Assembly: GCA_003645805.1 (NCBI GenBank)
Contig: QNCL01000001.1
Span: forward strand, 1,582 to 65,581
Direction of reading: 5' to 3'
Length of the DNA stretch: 64,000 bases
DNA from: Candidatus Omnitrophota bacterium
GTDB taxonomy: Bacteria > Omnitrophota > 4484-213
The notes under the pieces are model-generated. The model worked only from the letters and a program-made list of their open reading frames with translations, was not told the DNA's origin and ran no database searches. The position numbers and the translations under genes are program-made. Positions 53,559-60,091 of the stretch are shown in pieces; the stretch's first letter is position 1, and the number at the start of each line of letters is the position of its first letter.

Positions 53559-55039
53559 AGTTTTATATTACTACTCCTTTATATTATATAAATGCTGAAC
53601 CCCACATTGGTCATTCTTACACCAATATCGCTGCTGATTGTTTAGCCCGATATATGCGTCAACTCTATGGTGAGGAGAGTGTATATTTACTTACAGGCAC
53701 TGATGAGCATGGACAGAAGATAAAGAAAGCGGCTCAGCAAGCAGGCAAGGATCCCAAGGAGTTTGCGGATACAGTGGTAGAGCAATTTAAACACCTGTGG
53801 AAGGTGTTAGATATCTCCTATAACGATTTTATTCGCACTACTGAGCAAAGGCATATCAATACAGTAAAGCGGGTGCTGGAGATTCTATATAGAAAAGGAG
53901 ACATCTATTTAGCCAAATATGAGGGATGGTATTGCACACCCTGCGAGACCTTCTGGCCAAGTTCGCAGGTAAGTAAAGAACAATGTCCTGATTGTCAAAG
54001 ACCTGTGGAGAGGGTGAAAGAAAAAAATTACTTCTTTAGGCTGTCCAAATATCAAGATTGGTTAATCAACCATATTCACACCCATCCTTGTTTTATCCGC
54101 CCTTCTGTGCGTTCCCGGGAAATCCTGAGTTTCCTCCAACAACCCCTTACTGACCTGTGTATCTCTCGTCCACGCGAGCGTTTAAGTTGGGGAATAGAAC
54201 TTCCTTTTGATTCTTCCTATGTAACATATGTATGGTTTGATGCCTTGATTAACTATATTAGTGCAGTAGGAACATTTGATAGTCAAGACAGATATCATTC
54301 TCGCTGGTGGCCTGCAGACTTGCATCTGGTAGGGAAAGATATTCTCAGACAGCACGCAATATACTGGCCTATTATGCTCTATGCTCTGGGTATAGAGCCT
54401 CCGAAGACAATCTTTGCCCATGGCTGGTGGTTGATGGGCAAAGACAAGATGTCCAAATCCCGCGGGAATATCATCTCTCCTTATACAATAGTGGAGAGGT
54501 TTGGAGTGGATGTATATCGATACTTTCTGCTTAAGGATGTTCCTTTTGGCCAGGATGGACACTTCTCAGAGGAAGCAGTGATTAAGAGGTTTAATAGTGA
54601 CCTAGCCAATGACCTGGGAAACTTAGTGCATCGCACTCTCTCAATGATAGAAAAGTATCTGGAAGGAAAGCCTCCAAAGGAAAGAGAGTGCAGGGACAGA
54701 GAAGAAACGGAAATAGAGAGGAAAATAGAGAACCTTCCTTCCCAGATTAGAAACTCTCTCTCTGCAGAGAACGATTTTAATTTTGCCTTTGCGCTTGAGC
54801 AGATATGGGAGTTGGTAAATATGGCTAATAAGTTTATTGAGGAAACAAAACCCTGGATTTTGCTCAAGGAGAAGAAAACAGAGAAACTGGAAAGATTCCT
54901 CTTTCTTTTATTAAAGGCGATAAAAAAGATAGCGGAATCCTTGCAAGCGTTTATGCCTCAGACTGCCAGAGTGATTTTAGAGCATTTAGAGAAGGAAGAG
55001 ATAAAAAAGGGGAAGGCTTTATTTCCGAGGATAAGATGA
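53555..55039 (+). CDS. metG: methionyl-tRNA synthetase (short form)
   Basis: HIGH (EPHIGHSY), zinc knuckle CTPCETF...CPDCQ, KMSKSRGN. Confidence 0.9.
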   Translation: MKFYITTPLYYINAEPHIGHSYTNIAADCLARYMRQLYGEESVYLLTGTDEHGQKIKKAAQQAGKDPKEFADTVVEQFKHLWKVLDISYNDFIRTTEQRHINTVKRVLEILYRKGDIYLAKYEGWYCTPCETFWPSSQVSKEQCPDCQRPVERVKEKNYFFRLSKYQDWLINHIHTHPCFIRPSVRSREILSFLQQPLTDLCISRPRERLSWGIELPFDSSYVTYVWFDALINYISAVGTFDSQDRYHSRWWPADLHLVGKDILRQHAIYWPIMLYALGIEPPKTIFAHGWWLMGKDKMSKSRGNIISPYTIVERFGVDVYRYFLLKDVPFGQDGHFSEEAVIKRFNSDLANDLGNLVHRTLSMIEKYLEGKPPKERECRDREETEIERKIENLPSQIRNSLSAENDFNFAFALEQIWELVNMANKFIEETKPWILLKEKKTEKLERFLFLLLKAIKKIAESLQAFMPQTARVILEHLEKEEIKKGKALFPRIR

Positions 55040-55815
55040 TATTTGATACCCATACCCATCTGCACTTCTCTGATTATGATGAAGACAGAGAAGAGGTGAT
55101 AGAAAGAGCGAGAAAGGAAGGAGTTGGGGCATTGATAGAGGTGGGAGTAGATTTAGAGGATAGTAGAAAAGCAATAGAGTTAGCCCAAAGATATGAATTT
55201 ATATATACTGCAATAGGCGTTCACCCTCATTATGCCGATAAGGCAGAGATTGAGAAATTTGAGGCTTTGGCTGAAGAGAAGAAGGTAGTGGCTATTGGTG
55301 AGGTAGGGATAGATTACTTCCGTAGCCCTGTTCCTAAATCTGTGCAGCAGAGGGTATTTCGCCAATTCATTCGCTTAGCCAAAAAACATAACCTTCCTGT
55401 GATTGTGCATAGTCGTTCCGAGGAGAAGGAAGGCAAGGGAGCAAAAAACGCTTATCTGGATGCCCTCAAGATCTTAAAGGAAGAGAAGGTAGAGAAGGGA
55501 GTGTTTCATTGCTTCTGTGCAGATAGAGAGGTGGCAAAAGAGGTACTGGAAACGGGATTCTTTCTCTCTTTCACCGGAAATCTCACCTATCCCAATGCTC
55601 AAACAATAAGAGATACCCTCAAATTTACTCCTCTGGAGAGGATGCTTCTGGAGACCGATTGCCCTTTTCTTCCTCCTCAGGAGAAGAGAGGAAAAAGGAA
55701 TGAACCCGCTTATCTAAGATATGTCCTCTATAGATTAGCAGAGATAAAAGAAATTTCTTTAGCAGATATAGAGAAGATAACTACAAGAAATGCTCAAAGA
55801 TTGTTCGGTGTTTGA
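55036..55815 (+). CDS. tatD: TatD family deoxyribonuclease/hydrolase
   Basis: MIFDTHTHLHF metal-binding motif; 259 aa; directly after metG. Confidence 0.85.
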   Translation: MIFDTHTHLHFSDYDEDREEVIERARKEGVGALIEVGVDLEDSRKAIELAQRYEFIYTAIGVHPHYADKAEIEKFEALAEEKKVVAIGEVGIDYFRSPVPKSVQQRVFRQFIRLAKKHNLPVIVHSRSEEKEGKGAKNAYLDALKILKEEKVEKGVFHCFCADREVAKEVLETGFFLSFTGNLTYPNAQTIRDTLKFTPLERMLLETDCPFLPPQEKRGKRNEPAYLRYVLYRLAEIKEISLADIEKITTRNAQRLFGV

Positions 55816-57512
55816 ACTCCCGCAGGAGGTCTTCTCTTTTTGAAATGGATTTCAGAGAAACCCTTTTGTCTTTAGTAGAAAAGGTAGTGAAAGAAAACTT
55901 CTCGGTGCAGGTTTCTATCTCCCTACAGAAGCCCCCCAAGAAGGAGTTTGGAGATTTCTCTACAAATATAGCGATGCAAATTGCTTCCCTTAGAAAAGAA
56001 GAGCCTCAGGAGGTAGGTAGAGAGATTATCCACAAACTAAAGCAGAGAATAAGAGAAGATGAGCAGATAAAAGATAAGGTCAAGGAGATAAAACTTGCCC
56101 CTCCCGGATTTATCAATTTCTTTCTTCATCAAGATTCGCTCTTGGATGTCTTAGAGGAGATTAAGCGAGAAGGGAAAGATTATGGAAGTTCAAAAGCAAA
56201 AAAGGGAAAGAAGATAAATATTGAGTTTGTAAGCGCAAACCCTACCGGACCTCTTACCATTGCTCATGGAAGACAGGCTGCCTTTGGAGATGCTCTGGCA
56301 AATATCTTAAAAGAGCAAGGATATGAGGTGTTCCGAGAGTATTATGTAAACGATGAAGGAACCCAGATAGATTTGTTGGGAGAGTCTGTGCGGGCTTGCT
56401 ATCTTCACCTTTTAGGAGAGAAGGCAAGTTTTTCAGAAGAAGGGTATAAAGGAGATTATATCAAGGCAATTGCTCAACAGATTTTTGCTCAAGAAGGAAA
56501 AAGTAAGAAGGAAGAGGATAAGGATTTCTTTGCGCGGTTTGCTTTAGATTCTATTTTGCAAGAGATAAAAGATGACCTGAAAAGGTTTGGAGTAAATTTT
56601 GATCTCTACTTCAGCCAAAGGAGTTTAACCAGAGAGAAGATAGAAAAAGCAATAGAGACTCTGGATAAAAAAGGGTACATTCTCCGTAAAGAAGGAGCGA
56701 TCTTCTTTAAATCCAAAGAATTTGGAGATGATAAAGACCGTGTTCTGGTAAGGAGTGATGGAAGGATTACCTACTTCGGTTGGGATATTGCTTATCATCA
56801 AGATAAATACTCCCGGGGATTTGCTAAACTTATCAATCTCTGGGGTCCTGACCATCACGGTTATCTGAAGCGATTGAAAGGAGCGATTGAAGCCCTTGGT
56901 TATCCTAAAGAAACTCTTTCCATTATTATTGTCCAGTTAGTAAGTTTGTATCGCGGAAAGGATAAAATACCCATCTCCACACGGGCAGGAAAGTTCATCA
57001 CTCTCCGTCAGGTGATAGAGGAAATTGGTAAGGATGCAACACGCTTTTTCTTTCTCAGTCGGCGGAGTGACTCCCATCTTGATTTTGATCTGCAATTGGC
57101 AAAGAAAAAAAGTTTAGAAAATCCTGTTTACTATATCCAATATGCCTATGCACGCATTTGCAATATCTTAGAGTTTGCAAAGAAGGAGTATAAACAGATA
57201 AACATTTCTTCCATTTCCCTTAAAGATAAGGAATCCTCTCTCCTAAACAAAAAAGAAGAGATAGAACTGATAAAAAAACTTTCTGAGTTTCCCTCTATAT
57301 TATCCCTATGTGCCCAAAAACTGGAAGTGCATCCCCTTACTACTTACCTCTATGAACTCTCTTCCTTACTTCACAGTTTCTACAACCAACATCGGGTGGT
57401 TACAGAAAATAGAGAGATTACCTATGCGCGCTTGCTCCTGGTCTATTGCACAAAACTGGTGATAGAGAAAGGATTGGGAGTGCTGGGAATCTCTGCTCCT
57501 ACCAGGATGTGA
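55812..57512 (+). CDS. argS: arginyl-tRNA synthetase
   Basis: HIGH-equivalent SANPTGPLTIAHGR and the C-terminal anticodon-binding DALR domain expected for ArgRS; 566 aa. Confidence 0.9.
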   Translation: MNSRRRSSLFEMDFRETLLSLVEKVVKENFSVQVSISLQKPPKKEFGDFSTNIAMQIASLRKEEPQEVGREIIHKLKQRIREDEQIKDKVKEIKLAPPGFINFFLHQDSLLDVLEEIKREGKDYGSSKAKKGKKINIEFVSANPTGPLTIAHGRQAAFGDALANILKEQGYEVFREYYVNDEGTQIDLLGESVRACYLHLLGEKASFSEEGYKGDYIKAIAQQIFAQEGKSKKEEDKDFFARFALDSILQEIKDDLKRFGVNFDLYFSQRSLTREKIEKAIETLDKKGYILRKEGAIFFKSKEFGDDKDRVLVRSDGRITYFGWDIAYHQDKYSRGFAKLINLWGPDHHGYLKRLKGAIEALGYPKETLSIIIVQLVSLYRGKDKIPISTRAGKFITLRQVIEEIGKDATRFFFLSRRSDSHLDFDLQLAKKKSLENPVYYIQYAYARICNILEFAKKEYKQINISSISLKDKESSLLNKKEEIELIKKLSEFPSILSLCAQKLEVHPLTTYLYELSSLLHSFYNQHRVVTENREITYARLLLVYCTKLVIEKGLGVLGISAPTRM

Positions 57513-57524
57513 AAAATAAAAAAT

Positions 57525-57543
57525 ATTCTCCCTCCGGGAGAAT
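57525..57543. terminator. perfect 8-bp GC-rich hairpin (ATTCTCCC-TCC-GGGAGAAT) after argS
   Basis: Inverted repeat seen directly. Flanked by an A-run upstream and A-run downstream on the + strand, so the U-tract would be on the - strand. Function uncertain. Confidence 0.3.
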
Positions 57544-57614
57544 AAAAAGATAACATCTATTATTGGAAGCATAAGAAGCCTTATCCAGAATGCGGTAAGC
57601 GTTGGAAATGGAAT

Positions 57615-58016
57615 ATGGAACTTATAATTTCTCCTTGGAAAAATAAATTCATTGAAGTTGTAAGTAAAACAAAAAGAGAGCTGTTTATTTCTTCTCCCTT
57701 TATAGATGTAGACGCAGTGAAACTGCTTTCAAATTTAATTCAGAAAAGAAGTTCAATAGAGTTGTTCCTTATCACAAATTTAACAACGCACACTATAGTG
57801 AATAAAATTACTGATCCCCAGGCATTAATAGAATTGTATAAACAATTTAATAAGGTTAAAATCTCAAGCCTTGGAAGATTGCATGCAAAGGTGTATTTGA
57901 TAGATAGCGAGTTCGGAATAATCACTTCAGCAAATCTTACAATTGGCGGTTTAGTTAATAACTTCGAATATGGAGTCTTAATAAGCAATAGAAGTGTTAT
58001 CCGGAGCGTAAAATAG
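57615..58016 (+). CDS. phospholipase D-like (single HKD motif) nuclease-family protein
   Basis: HKD motif GRLHAKVYLIDSEFGIITSANLT (HxK..D......GSxN pattern); 133 aa. AT-rich codon usage unlike the neighbours. Confidence 0.65.
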   Translation: MELIISPWKNKFIEVVSKTKRELFISSPFIDVDAVKLLSNLIQKRSSIELFLITNLTTHTIVNKITDPQALIELYKQFNKVKISSLGRLHAKVYLIDSEFGIITSANLTIGGLVNNFEYGVLISNRSVIRSVK

Positions 58017-58091
58017 GTAACCATCAATAAGAAAAACTACGAATTCTTTTAATTTTGAATTACTAAAAATAGGATAAAAGGAGGAGGAACC

Positions 58092-58376
58092 ATGAGAAAG
58101 GACCATGAGAAAAGGAGAAAAAACACCAATGCAATCTTCTCTAAGACAATTCTTGACTTATTAAAAGAGCGAGGGCCCTTAAGCACAGAACAAATTCATC
58201 CCTTGATTCAAGCAATACATCCCGATATTTGCGATGATAGTATTGATAGAGTGATTGATGGCCAGCATTTTGGCAAGAAATGGAAACATTTAGTTAGAGG
58301 TGCTCAGCAATCTTTGAAAAGGAGAGGATTAATATTCTTAAAGAATAATAAATGGCATCTCGTAGGCAACAACTAA
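58092..58376 (+). CDS. Mrr-N-like winged-helix protein (restriction-system-type DNA-binding domain)
   Basis: 94 aa; ...HFGKKWKHLVRGAQQSLKRRGLIFLKNNKWHLVGN resembles the Mrr N-terminal winged-helix domain. RBS AGGAGGAGG before the ATG. Confidence 0.45.
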   Translation: MRKDHEKRRKNTNAIFSKTILDLLKERGPLSTEQIHPLIQAIHPDICDDSIDRVIDGQHFGKKWKHLVRGAQQSLKRRGLIFLKNNKWHLVGNN

Positions 58377-58500
58377 AAATCATAAAGAGAAAAACCTAAT
58401 GAGCAAAAACATCCTTTAGAAAAAACTCTCGCAAAGTAAGATTTCTATTTTGCAAAAAACCTGACATTTTTATTTTGGATTAACAAAACAAGTACAAAAA

Positions 58501-58529
58501 TTGACATCCTGGGGAGAAAATGTTATACT
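58501..58529 (+). promoter_or_regulatory. sigma70-type promoter upstream of leuA (TTGACA, 17-nt spacer, TATACT)
   Basis: TTGACA at 58501-58506, TATACT at 58524-58529, 35 nt upstream of the leuA ATG. Confidence 0.5.
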
Positions 58530-58564
58530 ATTCCCTTAGTGAAATTAAAGAAAGGTAAGGAGAG

Positions 58565-60091
58565 ATGAGAAGAATTTTGATATTTGATACTACATTAAGA
58601 GATGGAGAGCAGTCTCCGGGAGCAAGTCTAACCCCTGAGCAGAAATTAATTATTGCAGAACACCTGGAAAGGCTTAATGTGGATATAATTGAGGCGGGTT
58701 ATCCTGCTTCCTCTCCCGGTGAGATAGAAGCCATAAAAGAGATAAGTAAGCATATCAAAAAGCCCATAATTGCTGCTTTAGCGCGCACGCTTAAAACAGA
58801 TATAGATGCTTGCCTAAAGTCTTTAGAGAAGACAAGAAGAGCGCGCATACATATCTTCTGTGCAACCTCAGAGATTCATCTGAAATACAAACTAAAGAAA
58901 GCAAAGAAAGAGATATTAAAACTCACTGCGGAAAGTATAAGGTATGCCAAGCAGTTTATAGAAGATATTGAATTCTCTCCTGAGGATGCTACACGGACAG
59001 AATTTGATTTTTTGGTTGAGGTAGTTAAACTGGCTATAGAGGCAGGAGCCACAACCATCAACATTCCTGATACTGTAGGATGCAGTTTTCCTTCCCAGTT
59101 TGGCAGGTTAATCTCTAACCTTCGAGAGTCTGTAAACCTCTCAGATGTGCATCTAAGCGTCCACTGCCATAATGATCTCGGGATGGCAGTGGCTAATTCT
59201 CTGACCGCTATCGAGAAGGGAGCAGATCAGGTAGAGTGCACCATCAATGGCATTGGAGAACGAGCAGGGAATGCCTCTTTAGAGGAGATTGTGATGAATA
59301 TAAAACTGCATCCTGAAATCTTCAAGGGAGAAACGAGGATAAAGACCGAGGAGTTGTATAAAATCAGTCGACTGGTGAGCCATTTAACAGGCATCCCTGT
59401 TCAACCTAATAAGGCAATTGTAGGAAGTAATGCCTTTGCTCACGAAGCAGGCATTCATCAAGATGGAATACTGAAAAAAAGAACTACTTATGAGATAATT
59501 AACCCTACAGATGTAGGAGTAAAAGAAACGCGTTTGGTTCTGGGAAAACACTCGGGCAGACACGCCTTAGAGGAGCATTTGAAAAAGATGGGTTATCACC
59601 TCAGAAAAGAAGAGTTGGAAAATCTGTTCTTGAAGTTTAAGGAGATCGCCGATAAGAAGAAAGAGATCTTTGATGAGGATCTGGAGATTCTTCTTGAAGA
59701 GATCAAAGGCAGAGTTCCGCAGGTCTATAAACTGGATTATATTCATATCACCAGCGGAAATACTACTGTTCCTACAGCAACAGTAAGGTTAAAAAAAGGC
59801 AAGCAACTCCTTCAAGATTCTGCTTGTGGAGATGGCCCTGTAGATGCTTGCTATAAAGCAATAGAGAGAATTACAGGGGTAAGAGGCAAATTGCTAAATT
59901 ATTCTCTCCAAGCAATTACCTCAGGAAAGGACGCTGTAGGAGAGGTAAGTATCAAGGTAAAGTTTAAGGATAGGATAATCACCGCCCGAGGAGCAAGCAC
60001 GGATATCGTTGAAGGAAGTGCTAAGGCTTATTTAGAGGCGGTGAACAAGATGATTTACAAACTTAAAGAGAAAGGGAAATCCTCGCCTTAG
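58565..60091 (+). CDS. leuA: 2-isopropylmalate synthase / (R)-citramalate synthase family
   Basis: ILIFDTTLRDGEQSPGASLT N-terminus, HxH metal site (HCHNDLGMAVANSL), C-terminal LeuA-dimer regulatory domain; 508 aa. Confidence 0.8.
   Translation: MRRILIFDTTLRDGEQSPGASLTPEQKLIIAEHLERLNVDIIEAGYPASSPGEIEAIKEISKHIKKPIIAALARTLKTDIDACLKSLEKTRRARIHIFCATSEIHLKYKLKKAKKEILKLTAESIRYAKQFIEDIEFSPEDATRTEFDFLVEVVKLAIEAGATTINIPDTVGCSFPSQFGRLISNLRESVNLSDVHLSVHCHNDLGMAVANSLTAIEKGADQVECTINGIGERAGNASLEEIVMNIKLHPEIFKGETRIKTEELYKISRLVSHLTGIPVQPNKAIVGSNAFAHEAGIHQDGILKKRTTYEIINPTDVGVKETRLVLGKHSGRHALEEHLKKMGYHLRKEELENLFLKFKEIADKKKEIFDEDLEILLEEIKGRVPQVYKLDYIHITSGNTTVPTATVRLKKGKQLLQDSACGDGPVDACYKAIERITGVRGKLLNYSLQAITSGKDAVGEVSIKVKFKDRIITARGASTDIVEGSAKAYLEAVNKMIYKLKEKGKSSP

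Follow-up and report, generated by a model that had tools for sequence, protein, structure and literature searches.

A putative laterally acquired PLD-winged helix nuclease gene disrupted within its linker in a Candidatus Omnitrophota bacterium

Nucleotides 57608-58376 of the window (the whole 64-kb stretch of Omnitrophota DNA analysed here) probably represent a single laterally acquired defence-type nuclease gene of PLD-linker-winged helix (PLD-wH) architecture that has been inactivated by damage confined to its linker. The family is recently recognised and biochemically uncharacterised, and the window copy is a decayed member of it. A sequence-only reading had seen in the AT-rich region between argS and leuA a possible minimal module of two genes, one for a nuclease and one for DNA recognition. 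We suggest that this "two-gene islet" is instead the two same-frame ends of one ancestral gene, between which remnants of the linker are still readable (Table 1); the fallback offered by that reading, a decayed restriction gene, is the description that fits. The two "hypothetical proteins" DRP75_00330 and DRP75_00335 are better annotated as one disrupted PLD-wH nuclease gene.

Table 1. Features of the argS-leuA interval and its neighbours (window coordinates)
Feature	Position	Strand	Basis or remark
argS	55812-57512		5' neighbour of the AT-rich region
Post-argS spacer	57513-57614	+	starts after the argS stop codon
ORF1, 133 aa, complete PLD/HKD catalytic domain of the putative ancestral fusion gene	57615-58016	+	PLDc_2
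Remnant of the inter-domain helical linker	58017-58091	+	tblastn, blastn, alignment A5
ORF2, 94 aa, predicted C-terminal winged-helix DNA-binding domain of the putative ancestral fusion	58092-58376	+	homologues, model
AT-rich spacer with predicted leuA promoter	58377-58564	+	29% GC
leuA	58565-60091		3' neighbour of the AT-rich region

Results

Composition and origin of the locus

The GC content of 57513-58564 is 0.325 against a mean of 0.411 (sd 0.020) for all 1052-nt windows in the 64 kb (z = -4.3), making it the kilobase of lowest GC; only 0.16% of the sliding windows are equally GC-poor, and the lowest ones all overlap it. GC3 is 0.29 for ORF1, 0.37 for ORF2, and 0.36-0.43 for the flanking genes. 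Among intact relatives, the gene is richer in AT than its flanks or host in 69 of 70 loci. A copy from Elusimicrobia shares 90.8% nucleotide and 91% amino acid identity with ORF1 and is closer than an Omnitrophota copy (L026), which matches the window copy at ~77% nucleotide identity over a 174-nt winged-helix stretch only and has no detectable DNA match to it in the PLD region. On the strength of the GC anomaly, the 69 AT-richer loci, and the closer Elusimicrobia copy, the window gene is likely to be of lateral origin, in agreement with the suggestion made from its AT-rich look. A metagenome scan returned one relative of ArgS (44% identity, not syntenic), and an exact-protein look-up for the argS-leuA neighbourhood returned the same strain only.

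The two halves

ORF1 carries LHAKVYLIDSEFGIITSANLT, an exact HxKx4Dx6(T)SxN motif with the catalytic residues H90-A-K92-VYLI-D97-SEFGII-T-S-A-N107. Its match to Pfam PLDc_2 (46.3 bits, cut-off 27, E = 4.6e-12) upholds the original assignment of the 133-aa product as a single-HKD PLD nuclease, and its match to Pfam RE_NgoFVII (23.7 bits) lies 0.1 under the 23.8 cut-off. In the composite tblastn alignment, ORF1 spans roughly residues 4-125 of the intact proteins and runs a few residues into the next helix, and its stop codon, TAG (58014-58016), stands in place of a conserved GAG, the E of "KED" (alignment A5). Read by eye against the invariant list of alignment A4, the PLD-domain invariants are all kept. 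The PLD fold of the catalytic domain is supported by the full-length model of an intact relative (pLDDT 89.5, pTM 0.84), which a fold search places nearest to NucT, SauUSI, BfiI, Zucchini, Nuc, and NgoAVII (E = 1e-7 to 1e-5).

We found 42 homologues of ORF2 (46-76% identity), of which the longer start in the linker or the PLD tail, and longer homologues span both ORF1 and ORF2. By the same reading against the A4 list, ORF2 keeps its own invariants except T204 and also lacks the nearly invariant Y215. It had been described as an Mrr-N-like winged helix of 94 aa. The fold is supported by the AF2 model (pLDDT 81.6), whose fold matches are winged helices, and the likeness to Mrr_N (PF14338) by remote homology; ORF2 itself is below the Mrr_N threshold and has no match at E<=1. 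Among members of the family, 21 of 90 match Mrr_N at E<=0.1 (best E = 1.2e-4), all below the Pfam gathering score, and eight members scanned singly score 13.6-19 bits against a gathering threshold of 29.5 bits. We describe the DNA-binding domain of ORF2 as a predicted winged-helix fold, Mrr-N-like by remote homology below threshold.

Damage to the linker

ORF1 and ORF2 share a reading frame, and the composite full-length homologue aligns to both in one tblastn HSP (57618-58361, E = 4e-93), with gaps of 43 query residues, an insertion of 11 residues, and three in-frame stops. Alignment A5 shows four lesions, all within the linker: a nonsense codon, a ~131-nt deletion with its junction at 58020/58021, the deletion of 1 nt after 58064, and a 33-nt insertion at about 58095-58127 with a tandem repeat (ccatgagaaagga/ccatgagaaaagga). 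What is left of the linker can still be aligned, 58020-58084 matching positions 5961-6026 of the relative L011 at 79% (blastn), and its frame-shifted stretch reads TAA (58050-52) and TGA (58056-58). The ancestral linker codons "..KNRIKGG" (58065-58085) now double as the SD-like AAAGGAGGAGG. According to the same alignment, the ATG and the first ~12 codons of ORF2 derive from the 33-nt insertion; this new ATG follows GGAGGAGG and lies 4-7 nt after GGAGG.

An assembly artefact is not the source of the split, because two independent assemblies (ENA and Logan) each give products of 133 and 94 aa. No lesion falls in the ~650 nt coding for both domains, all being in the ~200-nt linker, and the dN/dS of both domain-coding parts is 0.08-0.18 (ORF1, 0.108 against L001; ORF2, 0.08-0.16 against intact relatives). 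Both domain-coding parts are clean, which means that the break happened recently or that the halves remain in use.

The intact family

Intact relatives encode one protein of ~285 aa, in which residues 1-127 form the N-terminal single-HKD PLD domain, residues 128-198 a helical linker, and residues 205-283 the C-terminal winged helix. PLDc_2 is matched by all 90 diverse relatives examined and RE_NgoFVII by 60 of them at E<=0.1; some members are labelled "NgoFVII family restriction endonuclease" by NCBI annotators. The sequence-only reading had asked whether the pair recurs as neighbours in other genomes, but the norm is the fused form, which is intact in 72 of the 79 evaluable genome loci (ORFs of 282-376 codons). 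The idea that all copies are broken, a homing-endonuclease-like decay, was rejected on the same genome scan; the impression arose because fragment-seeded searches gave only short proteins. Copies broken at other positions do occur (L002-5, L006-7, L015, L049, L050, L085, and L089), and in L008, L019, L022, and L045 the C-terminal part alone is kept.

The PLD-wH architecture, for which 27 members were listed in 2024 (Helbrecht et al. 2024, Front Microbiol 15:1286822; PMC11037411), is in fact widespread. The fused form dominates 340 clusters at 50% identity and 888 clusters at 90% (the profile for the representative search had 162 positions, the PLD columns having dropped out), and the family is spread over 313 species genomes of bacteria and archaea, among them Omnitrophota, Chloroflexota, Planctomycetota, Acidobacteriota, Thermoplasmatota, ANME-1, Altiarchaeales, and others. 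The gene has been exchanged between bacteria and archaea. Searches of phage, viral-contig, and plasmid collections returned no family member, only distant PLD-only matches on plasmids.

Neighbouring genes

Intact relatives stand alone or in small cassettes with an amino-MTase fragment, two small proteins, or an HNH nuclease; at about 40 of the 85 loci, about half, there is no partner gene. An N6_N4_Mtase ORF lies directly upstream in 26 of the 85 relatives, including the 91%-identical Elusimicrobia locus. These upstream ORFs match the Pfam profile (E = 7e-31) over positions 1-188 of 221 and PADLOC MTase_II (E = 1e-64) over positions 9-216 of 336. AdoMet motif I is absent from all 26 and was found in no frame within 4 kb. 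The PLD-wH gene beside such an ORF is usually intact, and the nuclease is therefore independent of that methylase. The window contains no methyltransferase, as had been noted at the outset.

The two small proteins, S92 and T130/T177, follow the PLD-wH gene in the cassettes, and S92 is translationally coupled to the nuclease gene. We considered whether S92 could be the C-terminal half that the methyltransferase lacks and rejected this, as S92 contains no glycine-rich motif and shows no similarity. A PDB sequence search with S92, T177, and the fusion gave nothing significant. To the eye, T177 may carry a PD-(D/E)xK-like "D..DFK" motif.

The spacers

Homology to the cassettes of relatives ends at 58363, and blastn found none beyond it; no remnants of S92 or T177 were found in 58377-58564, and the partner HMMs have no match in the window. 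An apparent S92 remnant at 58352 ("ATGGCATCT") was rejected because it is an overlapping reading of the conserved winged-helix KWHL codons; homology stops at 58363. On the other side, 57513-57607 (GC 0.347) has no DNA homology with the cassette of any relative (blastn). The post-argS spacer contains a 9-bp, GC-containing hairpin at 57524-57544, and the + strand of 57513-57614 lacks a promoter-like site for ORF1. The spacers gave no Rfam match, and the idea that they hold an RNA element or leader was rejected. The leuA promoter is predicted at 58501-58529 (TTGACA-17-TATACT with an extended-10 TG).

Discussion

Comparison with known systems

Among described enzymes, the nearest are the PLD-wH fusion endonucleases, represented by Aba4572I and CbaI, to which we liken the family by published description only. 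These two were published as toxic to E. coli and as candidate type IV enzymes; PLD-wH proteins, none of which was purified, were proposed to be stand-alone, modification-dependent restriction enzymes, with a winged helix defined by similarity to the DpnI 6mA reader (PMC11037411). Like Aba4572I and CbaI, the intact relatives are single chains with an N-terminal PLD domain and a C-terminal winged helix, and they occur in Chloroflexi/Anaerolineae MAGs, from which a good share of our loci come. Around Aba4572I, the paper reports an amino-MTase, the PLD-wH gene, and two hypothetical proteins, in agreement with the order MTase fragment, PLD-wH, S92, T130/T177 seen here. Unlike Aba4572I and CbaI, the window copy is two ORFs separated by three in-frame stops, and unlike the published PLD-wH proteins, the recurrent C-terminal Pfam signal here is Mrr_N only. 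The DpnI chain in the PDB gave no sequence match with profiles A2 (E up to 10) or A4 (E up to 1) and is absent from the best 50-60 fold matches; the general winged-helix fold is common to both. A link to CbaI through a neighbouring Leu-tRNA ligase was rejected, since the large downstream Chloroflexi ORFs encode a cNMP-binding protein, PheT, and an unknown protein.

The type IIS enzymes R.BfiI and R.NgoAVII (fold matches 2c1l, E = 3e-6, and 4rct, E = 1e-5) are built like the family: the single-HKD PLD domain comes first, and a linker connects it to a distinct DNA-recognition domain at the C-terminus. For them as for the family, the expected working form is a dimer whose subunits share a single active site. 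The recognition domain of R.BfiI and R.NgoAVII is B3-like, whereas that of the family is a winged helix, and they have working methyltransferases, whereas methylase ORFs here are absent or lack the AdoMet motif. Mrr (type IV, PF14338) resembles the family as a methylase-less restriction protein in which a winged-helix module is joined to a nuclease; in Mrr, however, the winged helix is N-terminal and the nuclease PD-(D/E)xK-like, whereas here the winged helix is C-terminal and the nuclease is of PLD type. The best structural match of the catalytic domain is Nuc/NucT (6ehi, E = 1.6e-7; 1byr, E = 5e-6), which is like ORF1 in size and motif. Nuc and NucT cleave non-specifically outside the cytoplasm and are not known to carry a DNA-recognition domain; ORF1 resembles such stand-alone enzymes because it has lost its own DNA-recognition domain.

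Proposed function and its probable loss

By analogy with the biochemistry of Nuc and BfiI, two PLD domains of the intact protein would dimerise to form one metal-independent active site and cleave through a covalent phospho-histidine intermediate, while the two winged helices, held by the linkers, would choose the DNA. About half of the intact copies stand alone and the adjacent MTase ORFs lack the AdoMet motif; for these reasons we infer that the family is less likely to be a classical type II enzyme protected by a methylase than a self-sufficient defence nuclease that depends on modification (type IV-like) or limits itself in some other way. In the window genome, the tether between cutter and reader is gone and the second half of the post-PLD helix is deleted, with loss of the conserved Y141, G145, and N146; any partner genes would have been lost or never have arrived. 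What remains here is most likely a restriction-type gene that is dead or dying.

Alternative explanations

Some of the evidence runs against inactivation. The lesions lie only in the linker, which is ~23% of the gene, and none in the domains, a distribution with a chance of ~0.003 if the four are independent (our own estimate); the halves are free of stops and keep the family invariants apart from T204 in ORF2; an ATG has been created after GGAGG; ORF2 alone is confidently predicted to fold; and dN/dS is low (0.11 against the closest relative). ORF1 and ORF2 might then be kept by selection and separately translated, their products re-associating non-covalently or serving different functions, such as DNA-binding regulation by the winged helix. 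We regard this as rather unlikely. The lesions are not independent, as a single messy deletion could explain several of them, and the low dN/dS is mostly history from before the break. There is no promoter-like site upstream of ORF1, which also lacks the second half of the conserved post-PLD helix, and an untethered, Nuc-like nuclease in the cytoplasm is expected to be harmful or useless. Other broken copies differ in the place of the break, which points to decay and not to a recurring design. Linker-only lesions, the new ATG, kept invariants, and the low dN/dS fit a very recent break equally well but leave room for a functional split.

Descent from a classical type II/IIS restriction-modification cassette of BfiI/NgoFVII type, in which loss of the methylase forced inactivation of the restriction gene, would account for the methyltransferase ORFs upstream of 26 relatives, the NgoFVII labels, the 60 RE_NgoFVII matches, and the presence of BfiI and NgoAVII among the best fold matches. 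We nevertheless consider it very unlikely: every adjacent methylase ORF ends before motif I with the nuclease usually intact beside it, the methylase is missing at about 40 loci, the winged helix is not the B3-like domain of BfiI and NgoAVII, and no methylase remnant is detectable in the window. Least probable, to the point of being barely credible, is a stray DISARM DrmC or a part of another multi-gene defence system that uses a PLD protein. The PLD domain of DrmC is similar in sequence to ORF1, whose best PADLOC and NCBIfam matches are DrmC profiles (E = 6e-17 and 1.4e-14), but the NCBIfam match scores 54.2 bits under a cut-off of 133. In a PADLOC scan of the 61 window ORFs, DrmA, B, D, E, and M were all without a match, the DrmC-type matches all coming from one ORF, and no DISARM genes were found next to relatives. 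To our knowledge, the description of DrmC includes no winged helix, and all members of the family here carry one. The DISARM lead of the sequence-only reading thus reduces to generic PLD similarity.

A further proposal, which we think unlikely, is that the PLD-wH nuclease is the core of an undescribed small defence cassette with the MTase-derived protein and the conserved proteins S92 and T177, of which the window copy would be a natural version with nuclease and reader as separate subunits. The MTase-derived protein, under purifying selection, would in that cassette possibly be a base-flipping DNA reader or a nuclease inhibitor and not an enzyme. With decay of a single fused gene as our preferred account of the window copy, the recurrent pairing of its intact relatives with conserved MTase ORFs that lack motif I bears on whether such nucleases read or avoid methylated DNA.

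A broken gene between argS and leuA

The stretch between argS and leuA (57513-58564, 1052 nt) has a GC content of 32.5% against a mean of 41.1% (sd 2.0, z = -4.3) across the 64 kb in windows of equal length, and is the GC minimum of the entire window; GC3 of ORF1 is 0.29 compared to 0.36-0.43 in neighbouring genes. The same pair, ORF1 (the PLD ORF) and ORF2 (the winged-helix ORF), is found in two independent assemblies of the source organism, a Candidatus Omnitrophota MAG. The AT-rich, two-ORF islet of the sequence-only reading is therefore real, as is its HKD/PLD nuclease: ORF1 has the exact HxKx4Dx6TSxN motif and exceeds the Pfam PLDc_2 threshold (46.3 bits). ORF2 has no match in Pfam, PADLOC or NCBIfam.

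That reading is borne out in part. Of the two interpretations it offered, a minimal two-gene module and, as a fallback, a decayed restriction gene, we adopt the second: the feature is a restriction-type gene in decay and not a new module of two genes. ORF1 and ORF2 are in frame with each other. In P0047 and P0054, two longer proteins homologous to ORF1, the sequence runs beyond the ORF1 stop, via a linker of ~60 residues, into that of ORF2, and longer homologues of ORF2 (P0018, P0011, P0004) start within the PLD-domain tail or the linker. A composite full-length protein gives a single same-frame tblastn HSP against the window (57618-58361, E 4e-93), with gaps of 43 query residues in total, an 11-residue insertion and three in-frame stops. 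DNA-level homology to relatives is confined to 57608-58363, and the linker remnant (58020-58084) is 79% identical to the locus L011 of a relative. Judged from these alignments, the two ORFs are one broken gene, and the lesions can be placed base by base (table). The ORF2 ATG directly follows the ancestral KGG codons, which are now Shine-Dalgarno-like: AAAGGAGGAGG.

Coordinates of the features in the window and at the loci of relatives (prefix L)
Feature	Position	Strand	Remark
TatD	55036-55815		housekeeping
argS	55812-57512		upstream flank of islet
ORF1	57615-58016	+	133 aa; DRP75_00330
GAG→TAG nonsense lesion	58014-16	+	E of conserved 'KED'
Deletion, ~131 nt	junction 58020/58021
Short frame-shifted remnant	between ~131-nt and 1-nt deletions		reads TAA and TGA by chance
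1-nt deletion	after 58064		restores frame; '..KNRIKGG' still readable
ORF2	58092-58376	+	94 aa; DRP75_00335
33-nt insertion	about 58095-58127		13/14-nt tandem repeat; source of ORF2 ATG
leuA	58565-60091		downstream flank of islet
MTase ORFs	L016:4710-5432, L012:4750-5394, L015:4698-5339, L026:4528-5172		upstream of PLD-wH gene; 22 further loci
S92	L011:6261-6539, L026:6234-6509, L002:6775-7050, L006:6840-7130
T130/T177	L026:6512-7045, L022:6542-7072, L012:6536-6928
HNH_2 nuclease	L039:4798-5370, L053:6425-7030, L088:6392-7243		downstream, in family's more distant branch; 13 other loci
Zinc-ribbon ORF, 61 aa	L026:5211-5396		CxxC...CxxC; between MTase fragment and PLD-wH gene
Zinc-ribbon ORF, 59 aa	L026:7084-7263		CxxC...CxxC; after T177, downstream end of cassette
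591-aa ORF	L008:3971-5746, L019:3962-5737
thrS	L090:3943-5868		islet neighbour
pheT	L029:6240-8681		islet neighbour
Other islet neighbours			L006 nusB/secA; L002 archease/AIR-synthase-like; L026 radC/rpmE-prfA

The window copy lacks the tether and some of the helix that follows the PLD domain. Loss of function is its simplest reading and, we think, a probable one. A functional split, with ORF1 and ORF2 kept as separate proteins, would account for the confinement of every lesion to the linker, the creation of a start codon with a Shine-Dalgarno sequence for ORF2, and the state of the invariant residues: read against the family list, ORF1 keeps all those of the PLD domain and ORF2 all but T204 and the nearly invariant Y215. 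Also in its favour, dN/dS comes to 0.11 when ORF1 is compared with its nearest relative (dS 0.37), and lies at 0.08-0.18 when either half is compared with intact relatives. All of this is equally expected of a very recent break, and the linker lesions need not have arisen independently. Among the other disrupted copies, frameshifts and deletions at different positions break L002-5, L006-7, L015, L049, L050, L085 and L089, and the PLD part is lost outright in L008, L019, L022 and L045; this is the pattern of decay, and we regard a functional split as unlikely.

The intact family

The intact relatives are single-chain nucleases with a PLD domain, a helical linker and a winged helix (PLD-wH). The model of one of them, P0209 (59-sequence alignment, pLDDT 89.5, pTM 0.84), has the PLD domain at 1-127, helices at 128-144, 150-170 and 178-198, and the winged helix at 205-283; the solved structures that it matches best are NucT, SauUSI, BfiI, Zucchini, Nuc and NgoAVII. 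All 90 diverse members match PLDc_2, and the catalytic motif of the family is intact; 60 of the 90 match RE_NgoFVII. Mrr_N is matched by 21, never reaching the cut-off (best E 1.2e-4), and no other DNA-binding family recurs among the 90, so the label ‘Mrr-N-like winged helix’ was reasonable as a statement of remote homology.

In a scan of one genome per species, the C-terminal domain is present in 313 genomes, all of them MAGs. Among the best 80 loci, 72 of the 79 that could be evaluated have one uninterrupted frame of 282-376 codons over the whole composite. An exhaustive profile search gave 340 clusters at 50% identity; in most the protein is 280-300 aa long, and residues ~125-285 form the linker and C-terminal domain. 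A word-seeded search with an intact member gave 888 clusters at 90% identity. The source names are only ‘phospholipase D-like domain-containing protein’, ‘NgoFVII family restriction endonuclease’ and ‘HKD family nuclease’. Hosts include Omnitrophota, Chloroflexota, Planctomycetota, Acidobacteriota, Nitrospirota, Thermoplasmatota, ANME-1 and Altiarchaeales.

The gene is laterally mobile. In 69 of 70 loci its AT content exceeds that of the flanks (mean difference 10 points), and ORF1 of the window shares 91% identity with an Elusimicrobia copy. L026, from another Omnitrophota genome, shares ~77% nucleotide identity with the window over a 174-nt wH stretch alone, with no detectable DNA match in the PLD region. 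On sequence grounds, the AT-richness and the Elusimicrobia-like ORF1 despite the distant L026 copy are marks of a horizontally moving gene. The family has no match in 50,697 phage records or in IMG/VR; plasmids gave distant PLD-only matches and nothing closer, and no vehicle for the gene was found.

Gene neighbourhoods

We surveyed 85 loci with HMMs built from neighbour clusters. Copies are typically small islets amid housekeeping genes. An N6_N4 amino-methyltransferase (MTase) ORF lies immediately upstream on the same strand in 26 loci; S92, an ORF of ~92 aa, occurs in 19, followed in 14 by T130/T177 (130-177 aa), and an HNH_2 nuclease lies downstream in 16. About 40 loci have none of these partners, nor does the window; the gene thus occurs on its own. 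S92 shares 3-15 nt with the 3' end of the nuclease gene, stop codon included, which points to translational coupling. S92 and T177 are both conserved, T177 with 62 invariant positions in seven sequences; sequence searches of Pfam, PADLOC, NCBIfam and the PDB matched neither. The HNH_2 partner resembles a phosphorothioate-DNA-binding restriction endonuclease family, scoring below that family's cut-off, and one of the 16 copies includes MTaX1, a ‘methylase-associated’ domain that has been put forward as a possible discriminator of modified DNA (PMC10853773).

None of the 26 methylase ORFs reaches AdoMet-binding motif I, and no such motif turned up in any frame within 4 kb. The ORFs cover 1-188 of 221 positions of the Pfam profile and 9-216 of 336 of the PADLOC profile (E 1e-64); that of L016 ends '…EGDVVLD|YWRDKYAI*'. 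The four longest fragments (L012, L015, L016, L026) appear to be under purifying selection and not ordinary pseudogenes, because 9-23% of non-synonymous sites differ (pN 0.09-0.23) against saturated synonymous sites. The nuclease gene beside them is usually intact, which argues against reliance on that methylase for host protection. The methylase ORFs might encode a reader or regulator descended from a methylase; alternatively, the cassette might have inserted repeatedly into genes for methylases. This partner, the breadth of the family and its inter-domain transfer may repay further work.

An aminoacyl-tRNA synthetase adjoins several copies (argS in the window, thrS, pheT), and a Leu-tRNA ligase is reported in the literature beside the PLD-wH enzyme CbaI; over about 180 neighbour slots this is near chance expectation and so probably coincidence. 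At L008 and L019, a 591-aa ORF is followed ~250 nt downstream by the surviving wH part only (89 aa, 82% identity). The L008 ORF has a ScoMcrA_N domain (type IV restriction-related), and RadC and a UvrD/PD-(D/E)xK helicase-nuclease nearby give the look of a defence island.

Mechanism and relation to known systems

The closest described kind is the class of PLD-wH fusion endonucleases (Helbrecht et al. 2024, PMC11037411), and the published Aba4572I neighbourhood of amino-MTase, PLD-wH and two hypothetical proteins matches the cassette of the relatives here. On architecture and neighbourhood, our family may plausibly belong to this class; its winged helix has no detectable likeness to DpnI. The window adds a further, disrupted example to an already described kind. 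In that study, PLD-wH constructs were toxic in E. coli, both being less so in uninduced Dam- cells, CbaI showed typical ‘restriction’ of a Dam+ host, and purification failed for every construct (PMC11037411).

By analogy with Nuc and BfiI, PLD dimerisation would create a single active site, and cleavage would be metal-independent through a phospho-histidine intermediate. A stand-alone fusion of winged helix and nuclease would be tolerated only if its target DNA, most simply modified DNA, were absent from the host, which would make it a type IV-like restriction enzyme; on genomic context and the work of Helbrecht et al. 2024, we give this assignment an even chance. BfiI and NgoAVII share the logic of PLD plus reader but differ in having a B3-like reader and real methylases. 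The likeness to DISARM DrmC does not extend beyond the PLD domain: with PADLOC on all window ORFs, ORF1's own match is the sole Drm hit, and nothing else of a defence system that would employ a PLD subunit is present in the window.

PADLOC also gave single strong matches to mad3 (E 1e-60), mad2 (3e-19) and mad8 (4e-11), components of a methylation-associated defence system, as well as to dCTPase, SMC-like ATPases and QatD, the last probably the housekeeping TatD. The 60 non-overlapping ORFs with 100 aa or more at window positions 1-62588 are without exception on the + strand, a co-directional run of unusual length, and GC skew is positive almost throughout the profiled 50-64 kb part.
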